Assembly (NCBI RefSeq): GCF_017348835.2 | Contig: NZ_CP071375.1 | Source of the DNA: Escherichia coli | GTDB taxonomy: Bacteria; Pseudomonadota; Gammaproteobacteria; Enterobacterales; Enterobacteriaceae | Length of the DNA stretch: 64,000 bases | Direction: 5' to 3' (one strand) | The notes under the pieces: generated by a model | Told to the model about the DNA's origin: nothing | The model's database searches: none | The model's input: only the letters and a program-made list of their open reading frames with translations | Program-made: the position numbers and the translations under genes | Part shown: positions 48,804-49,517 of the stretch, one piece after another | How the letters are laid out: every line of letters begins with the position of its first letter | Position numbering within the stretch: position 1 is the first letter of the stretch

Positions 48804-49243
48804 AGGTTTCTCTTATGTTGGCGTTTTCTATTCAGTATAGAAGTGGGAGCGGCCAGGCGAGATGCGGAAGTTCTGGAATGTTTCTTTTTTTGGTGATGGT
48901 GACTGAAGCAATTTGGCTACTTTTGCAATGTGACAAGTTATGGCACGGCTGGCTGGTGGCGAAGAATTTTGATGATTGGGGCGCGCAGAATAAAACTGGC
49001 TCAGCTTCAGTTGATCAAATGAGGAGTGAGAAGTCCGAAACAAGACTCACTGTATAAATAAACAGCTATTTTATTGAGGAAGGGTAAGATAACGGCGGGT
49101 GCCTGAAGCTTTCCGGTTTCAGGTTAACTCTGAGGTCTGGAAAGATGAAGCCCCAGGAGATATTTCTATCAACCCTGGGGCTACCTACCCAAACCTGAAC
49201 AATTTGGATGGTAGTCCCTTCTTCGCATGGAGGCAATATAAAC

Positions 49244-49396
49244 ATGCTGACGAAATATGCCCTTGTGGCAGTCATAGTGCTGTGTTTGACAGTGCTGGGA
49301 TTTACGCTTCTGGTCGGAGACTCGTTGTGTGAGTTTACGGTGAAGGAACGTAATATTGAGTTCAGGGCTGTTCTCGCTTACGAACCGAAGAAGTAG
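49244..49396 (+). CDS. hokE: Type I toxin HokE (Hok/Gef family)
   Basis: 50 aa [50 protein letters not shown]; the track ORF has an in-frame upstream extension from 49208. Confidence 0.88.
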
Positions 49397-49517
49397 CCGT
49401 TGTGCGGGGAGCAATCCCCGCATATCCGGTTGTCAGGTCAGAGTGGTAAGGCACCTGCTTTACACTTTCGCCCGCAGTCAGTGATGGCTGCGGGCGAATC
49501 GTACCAGATGTTGTCAA

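Follow-up and report, generated by a model that had tools for sequence, protein, structure and literature searches.

The hok mRNAs typically close on themselves by pairing of a 5' tac with a 3' fbi element, and in the mechanistic model of R1 hok/sok a GC hairpin after the stop codon protects or stabilises the processed, active hok mRNA; by the numbering given there the mok leader of R1 is out of frame with hok (PMC9841398). Among the loci compared here mok is in frame with hok for mokC and the IncFII variant and out of frame for mokB; the mok AUG of the R1-type locus, hokB and hokC lies within the stretch complementary to Sok, ~9 nt after a GAGG. Inactivation of the K-12 hokE gene by an insertion sequence has been stated in the literature, where its mRNA is also given as edited to 40%, A-to-I editing recoding the Tyr46 codon to Cys, and where the role of Cys46 is dealt with (PMC12214031). 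K-12 HokE is toxic on overexpression, and hok "islets" have been reported in Escherichia (bioRxiv 10.1101/2025.08.07.668861).

Identity and setting of the locus

The window, i.e. the whole 64,000-nucleotide stretch of DNA that was analysed, is E. coli chromosome, with 99.98% identity to strain F2_81 over 4.1 kb and 96-98% identity to K-12 and O157:H7. The region in question is very probably a single-copy, IS186-free form of chromosomal hokE/sokE, a type I toxin-antitoxin locus of E. coli, with the cis elements of R1 hok/sok except the canonical mok start and the GAGG Shine-Dalgarno sequence. The locus had thus been interpreted correctly in the original prediction, and it is an already known and ordinary one. 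It lies where that prediction put it, between ybdK (47685-48803, - strand; Pfam GCS2 and the F2_81 annotation) and entD (49518-50138, - strand, with the stop codon at 49518-49520, from the annotation of the 99.98%-identical F2_81), and the coordinates confirm both this position and the distance to entD, a gap of 121 bp at 49397-49517.

The predicted 50-aa Hok-family ORF is present at 49244-49396 (+ strand), preceded by a hok Shine-Dalgarno sequence GGAGG at 49229-49233 (+). Its product matches Pfam PF01848 HOK_GEF over residues 5-46 of 50 with 33.3 bits (cut-off 22; E=3.5e-8), which places it among the small hydrophobic toxins of the Hok/Gef family, and two of its 50 residues are not those of K-12 HokE (V8A, R41K). 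The Tyr46 codon is UAC followed by a G, and the surrounding sequence is invariant among the hokE alleles compared. RefSeq annotates hokE in the near-identical F2_81 as well as in 99.9%-identical and 94-97%-identical E. coli genomes, and the gene is named hokE in every gene-covering row among the E. coli matches listed. The locus is matched in 5415 of 5426 complete E. coli genomes. Both GC hairpins that had been noticed downstream of hokE are present, and both form in the minimum-energy fold. A chance origin of the ORF and hairpins within an intergenic spacer would agree with consensus scans for promoters and terminators, which gave no hits over 48750-49560; such an origin would however have to produce the Pfam match, an Rfam match with E=2.3e-19, a fold with z=-7 and a locus matched and annotated as hokE across the genomes just cited, and its probability is vanishingly small.

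Several other features were observed in and around the spacers. The ybdK-hokE spacer of K-12 has 12 bp more, a tggtgatggtga-type direct repeat, than that of the window at 48888-48892. In the entD-fepA interval an ES036 (CssrF) sRNA match at 50197-50238 (- strand, 42 bits) exceeds its gathering score, and the adjoining REP-like naRNA4 match at 50243-50284 is under its own. PGAP gives a "hypothetical protein" of 84-89 aa antisense to the hokE leader, at about 49007-49275 (-) in window coordinates, that is intact in some strains (WP_072022565.1, WP_002430445.1). It was treated as spurious on account of frameshifts or internal stops in the window, F2_81, K-12 and O157:H7, and is probably a member of a spurious ORF family.

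The IS186 site and the states of the locus among E. coli genomes

The original prediction had placed an IS186 copy between hokE and entD in K-12 and suggested that the locus seen here might be the uninterrupted form. The element is indeed annotated in NC_000913.3 as IS186B (insL2) at 608007-609351, between hokE (607836-607988) and entD (609459-610079), with sokE at 607733-607792 on the - strand. Its core measures 1339 bp, is flanked by a 10-bp target duplication, GGAGTAATCC, and sits in the loop of the first GC hairpin, which corresponds to 49404-49421 of the window. When the core and one repeat are taken out of K-12, GCGGGGAGTAATCCCCGC results, the hairpin found whole in the window as GCGGGGAGCAATCCCCGC, and the K-12 sequence so treated aligns without gaps across the hairpin at the same 121-bp spacing. 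The alignment that had been proposed as the check therefore finds this spacing in K-12 only once the IS is taken out, and it identifies the allele of the window as uninterrupted rather than of the K-12 IS186-interrupted type, with the hairpin 8-25 bp after the stop codon whole. The original description of the locus, that of Pedersen and Gerdes in 1999, is said to have noted IS-free copies in natural isolates as well.

Since the K-12 IS186 lies in the post-stop hairpin, it destroys the protective hairpin and separates the gene from the fbi element and the 3' hairpin. In K-12 hokC, IS186, again a core of 1339 bp with a duplication of 10 bp, occupies the loop of the equivalent GGGGAGTGATCCCC hairpin, of the form G4-N6-C4, 19 bp after the stop codon (L005 2001-3359 and L006 181-1539 of the compared stretches for the hokE and hokC copies). 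On the basis of these two K-12 insertion sites the G4-N6-C4 post-stop hairpin appears to behave as an IS186 target; IS186 reportedly prefers sites made of a G-run, N and a C-run (saiSree et al. 2001).

The uninterrupted form is real but common, as about two thirds of genomes are unbroken at this site: a 141-bp segment across the hairpin and fbi is contiguous in 3646 of 5426 complete E. coli genomes. The K-12 hokE::IS186 junction is found at a query coverage of >=80% in at most 1741 of 5426, an upper bound because the hokC::IS186 junction also scores. The junction of a tandem two-unit hokE/sokE array occurs in 2503 of 5426 genomes (~46%), e.g. in O157:H7 (L003 3139-3794), E. coli W, JJ1887 and S1-KEN-07-A. 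The single uninterrupted hokE is by subtraction left with ~1100-1150 genomes, or ~21%, in agreement with the spread of the listed matches. The window is not of the O157:H7 tandem type; its alignment with O157 copy 1 ends at 49497 and that with copy 2 begins at 49029, and it holds one unit with entD directly after it.

Further arrangements were met in passing. Two hokE copies, each with an IS186, also occur. In REL606 (E. coli B; L008 13543-16885) an IS150 carrying an IS1 lies in the leader at the equivalent of ~49171, where it cuts sokE, and IS186 lies downstream. Expression of hokE has been found to be higher in E. coli B than in K-12 (PMC3446290); an IS-free allele as the source of this difference is ruled out by the IS186 and the IS150(::IS1) of REL606. 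In place of entD, the ST131 strain JJ1887 and S1-KEN-07-A have after the hokE pair an island with two SDR oxidoreductases and an ABC transporter permease (L012 3907-5896; L013 3912-5899), and hence the 3' flank of hokE is also an insertion point for larger DNA.

The hokE mRNA, the SokE RNA and the mok question

A full-length match to the Rfam family RF01794, which bears the name "sok", lies on the + strand at 49097-49252 (model positions 1-157; 87.1 bits against a gathering score of 59). This family always matches the strand opposite the curated sokE, sokC and sokB genes of K-12 (also L005 1690-1845, L006 1702-1854 and L007 567-718), and it therefore models not Sok but the hok mRNA leader, position 1 being the mRNA 5' end. 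Pipelines that use RF01794 as a "sok antitoxin" will consequently mislabel both strand and extent, a 157-nt match standing for a Sok RNA of ~60 nt. By this match the locus has the conserved structured leader of the family (tac stem, ucb and SD/dcb target hairpin), and K-12 hokE, hokB, hokC and the R1-like hok match the same model. The match starts with model position 1 at 49097, as it does at the corresponding place in K-12 hokE, hokC and hokB, and in the R1-like locus it begins 1 nt upstream of the GGCGC start. The hokE mRNA is accordingly predicted to start near 49097, and both of its ends are predictions; the full-length transcript would measure ~400 nt, from this +1 to the end of the 3' hairpin (49097-49497, +). 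A putative -10 box TAAGAT at 49085-49090 (+), 6 nt upstream of the predicted start, has the position and spacing of the TATGAT that precedes the GGCGC start of the R1-type hok mRNA; no convincing -35 box accompanies it, and the consensus scan gave no strong promoter for the mRNA.

The 399-nt RNA 49097-49495 has a minimum free energy of -168 kcal/mol (z=-7.0 against shuffles). In this fold the tac element at its 5' end, GGGUGCCU (49097-49104, +), forms 8 bp with the fbi element AGGCACCU (49449-49456, +), so that the predicted full-length mRNA has the long-range 5'-3' closure of hok mRNAs. The structure of the Rfam model instead shows the open tac/ucb stem, in which the partner of tac is GCCCC at about 49149-49153. 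Each paralog has a complement of its own 5' end 52-57 nt after the stop codon: GGCGCUU and AAGCGCC in the R1-like hok, GGGUGCC and GGCACCC in hokB, both found by script search as was the hokE pair, and GGGUGC and GCACCC (6 bp) in hokC, the latter located by eye in the 3' UTR where the script gave only GU-rich chance matches. Since each complements its own, different, 5' end, the tac/fbi pairing covaries, both sides having changed between the R1-like hok and hokE.

Within the leader the ucb/anti-SD hairpin (49149-49181, +) pairs GCCCCAGG with CCUGGGGC in every fold tested and corresponds in the Rfam alignment to the ucb and the mok Shine-Dalgarno GAGG of R1; in each of these folds the SD-like GGGG at 49177-49180 is held by the upstream GCCCC of ucb. 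The Sok-target (SokT) hairpin at 49177-49218 (+) is a helix of the Rfam model with the loop CCUGAACAA (49194-49202), whose YUNR-type CUGA is the loop motif of the R1-type locus (UCUGACAA).

Downstream of the stop codon the GC hairpin GCGGGG-AGCAAT-CCCCGC (49404-49421, +) is the predicted protective 3' stem-loop of the processed mRNA, and a GC hairpin also stands right after the stop codon in the R1-like hok, hokB and hokC. The 3' terminal GC hairpin, CGCCCGCAG...CTGCGGGCG (49469-49496, +), is a putative terminator 21 bp from the entD stop. In O157:H7 copy 1 this hairpin is followed by the U-rich AUUUCGUUUU, whereas in the single-copy arrangement of the window no U-tract follows it and the terminator scan found nothing there. 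When the mRNA was shortened from its 3' end, the 5' end refolded onto 49117-49130 in three of four truncations and onto 49186-49190 in the fourth, resembling the metastable hairpin described for R1. The SD-like GGGG remained paired in the minimum-energy folds of all four, which did not reproduce the "open" R1 state; such prediction therefore does not settle activation, which is taken over from the R1 model.

The antisense RNA, which the original prediction had expected in the leader without placing it, maps by gap-free homology to the curated K-12 sokE (b4835, 607733-607792) as a 60-nt SokE at 49141-49200 on the - strand. It is predicted to fold (-23.8 kcal/mol, z=-2.9) into a terminator-like hairpin, with a tail of 10 unpaired nucleotides on its 5' side and a U-rich sequence at the 3' end. 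Its promoter (49208-49236, -) consists of a -35 box TTGCCT at 49236-49231, a 17-nt spacer and a -10 box TACCAT at 49213-49208, with 7 nt to the +1 at 49200; it is identical in sequence to that of K-12, and was placed by homology because its consensus score of 8/12 falls under the threshold of the scan. In the R1-type locus TTGCGC-17-TATCCT stands at the homologous position. The same TTGCCT-17-TACCAT is listed for an RpoD-holoenzyme SELEX peak in this K-12 spacer, in a table where the site is attributed to ybdK, a gene read in the same direction (PMC3946193). As judged by homology only, the locus thus would have a cis-encoded antisense Sok RNA that overlaps the leader, with a promoter, a free 5' tail and a terminator hairpin of its own.

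The mok leader is the part of the original prediction that stands only in half. An in-frame ATG is present at 49208 and opens a 62-aa ORF, so that a candidate leader "mokE" of 12 codons at 49208-49243 (+), of uncertain status, can be read from the ORF list, and the ATG is conserved in 14 alleles. A leader role is not secure, in view of the overlap with the Sok -10 box and the lack of a Shine-Dalgarno sequence at a usable distance from this ATG. Read on the opposite strand, the ATG makes up the last three bases of the -10 box, and since these are the same bases its conservation can be explained by this overlap alone. It lies 8 nt outside the Sok-complementary region, and an in-frame TGA at 49196 closes the frame upstream of it. 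Two other candidate starts were rejected. From ATG 49145 a longer in-frame ORF can be read in K-12 and O157 copy 2, but TGA 49196 ends it in the window and a frameshift disrupts it in O157 copy 1; the UUG at 49204, which is out of frame, has TCG in its place in haplotype D. A start codon at the mok position of R1, hokB and hokC is absent from all 14 hokE alleles compared, and the K-12 annotation gives mokB and mokC and no mokE within the stretch compared. The missing canonical mok start is thus a property of hokE in general, not of the window. As there is no such start, GGGG stands in place of GAGG and ATG 49208 also forms part of the Sok -10 box, translation may be coupled differently than in R1, or weakly.

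Allelic variation, proposed working and relation to known hok systems

Diversity was compared among 14 hokE units from 10 strains plus the window. It peaks at 49179-49198, the segment that holds the 5' part of Sok and the arm and loop of the target hairpin, where pi is 0.19 against <=0.07 in every other 20-column segment, three overlapping ones excepted. No variation among the 14 units is seen in the Sok promoter, around the hok start or at the 3' end of the coding sequence. The Sok-target segment falls into four haplotypes, the window having A, with the CUGA loop of the R1-type locus, and K-12 having B, with CCGA. Between haplotypes A and D two base pairs have changed in a compensatory way (CCAAA/TTTGG to CCGAG/CTCGG), which supports the Sok-target hairpin. 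The tandem pairs are heterotypic in 4 of 4 cases (O157:H7, JJ1887, S1-KEN-07-A and 118C_1_fosA3), which is not significant, being expected at about 0.3 by chance with four haplotypes. There is at most a weak indication of diversifying selection on the Sok-recognition segment, and it is general to hokE rather than specific to the window. The further-reaching proposal that the hokE lineage is a mok-less hok/sok variant, in which Sok acts without a canonical leader ORF, the 20-nt recognition segment 49179-49198 is under diversifying selection and tandem copies carry non-cross-reacting Sok/hok pairs, seems unlikely.

The same alleles bear on the history of the locus. The single copy could be the secondary product of a two-copy tandem array that collapsed by recombination, not an ancestral uninterrupted form. 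The frequency of the tandem junction (2503/5426) would agree with this, as would the mosaic make-up of the window, which shares sites with O157:H7 copy 1 in parts of the coding region and with copy 2 in the leader and 3' UTR, and the occurrence of haplotype A in either position of the tandem arrays (copy 1 of JJ1887 and 118C, copy 2 of S1-KEN). The K-12 allele, moreover, combines haplotype B with a copy-1-like 3' UTR, so that the window is not simply "K-12 minus IS186". The mosaic is however not that of a single crossover, and similar patterns would arise if the copies had undergone gene conversion, or if a single copy had been duplicated. Collapse is thus a possibility of some substance but not the favored one, and it concerns history only; the identity of the locus as a single uninterrupted hokE/sokE is unchanged by it.

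For the working of the locus, the transcript ends, 3' processing, Sok-dependent decay, translational coupling, editing in this strain and physiological role are those suggested by the R1 model and the K-12 data. A weak promoter would give rise to the ~400-nt hokE mRNA from 49097, and this full-length RNA would be inert, with tac paired to fbi at 49449-49456 and the SD-like GGGG held by its upstream complementary box. Slow 3' trimming to the GC hairpin at 49404-49421 would remove fbi and allow the 5' end to refold. The processed RNA could then meet one of two fates: the 60-nt SokE (49141-49200, -) would bind it by way of its unpaired 5' tail and the CUGA loop, leading to its degradation, or translation would yield the 50-aa membrane toxin HokE, to whose toxicity A-to-I editing of Tyr46 to Cys probably adds.

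The locus might instead be structurally intact but functionally silent, a decaying hok copy whose toxin never reaches harmful levels and whose mok-type coupling is lost, the absence of IS186 then being without phenotypic consequence. The general lack of a start codon at the canonical mok position (none in any of the 14 alleles), the replacement of the GAGG by GGGG and the explanation of the in-frame ATG 49208 by the Sok -10 box are all consistent with decay, and IS insertions are tolerated in many lineages, i.e. IS186 in <=1741 genomes and IS150 together with IS186 in REL606. As cited in the islet preprint, the chromosomal hokA, hokB and hokC, hokE not being among the genes tested, showed no post-segregational killing and were proposed to be inactive (bioRxiv 10.1101/2025.08.07.668861). 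Against silence stand the strong conservation of the coding sequence, the Sok promoter, tac and fbi, with a diversity of 0 at 49219-49258 and 49369-49398, the compensatory changes that preserve pairing in the target hairpin, and the toxicity of HokE when it is expressed; recurrent IS insertion at or in the locus together with maintenance of Sok is also what would be expected if an unrestrained copy were costly. A silent locus is therefore considered rather improbable, and a hokE/sokE that would be regulated as outlined above is preferred.

The locus matters little beyond its correct annotation, hokE/sokE being a textbook example of a type I toxin-antitoxin locus on the chromosome. With nothing inserted between its coding region, fbi and the 3' hairpin, the hokE of this strain is nevertheless the right template for experiments on hokE regulation, for which K-12 cannot serve, and the survey shows roughly how often each of the three main states occurs, i.e. 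the single uninterrupted locus, the tandem array and the locus interrupted by IS186.

Of the known systems, K-12 hokE/sokE (b4415/b4835) has the same ybdK-hokE-entD position and gene order and is collinear with the window at ~96% nucleotide identity; its Sok promoter, tac, fbi, hok Shine-Dalgarno and editing-site context are identical. The window differs from it in being without IS186, and in its Sok-target haplotype, which is set apart by five substitutions at 49184-49196, one of which, a U, gives a YUNR loop (CUGA versus CCGA in K-12) and creates the in-frame TGA. The tandem hokE pairs of O157:H7, W and ST131, i.e. the hok "islets", are built of units that are each the same ~470-bp hok/sok module as in the window, but their two units lie 503 bp apart with a 34-bp junction, TTTCGTTTTAAGAGCAATGATGAGTTTTGCCGAC, that the window does not have. 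The hokC/mokC/sokC (gef) locus of K-12 is paralogous, carries IS186 in the equivalent hairpin and, with mokC in frame with hokC, offers a precedent for an in-frame leader; unlike hokE, it has a canonical mok start (GAGG, with the AUG 9 nt later) inside the Sok-complementary region. From R1 hok/sok, represented here by the identical-Hok locus of pMTY1886_IncFII, hokE differs in being chromosomal rather than plasmid-borne, in a toxin of 50 instead of 52 aa with low identity and Tyr instead of Cys at position 46, and in having no start codon at the mok position, GGGG for GAGG and no U-tract after the 3' hairpin. It nonetheless resembles R1 in its predicted ~400-nt mRNA with tac/fbi closure and ucb pairing to the SD-like element, in the Sok-target hairpin with its CUGA loop, in a Sok promoter at the same relative position in the leader, in the GC hairpin after the stop codon and in a toxin of the Hok/Gef family.
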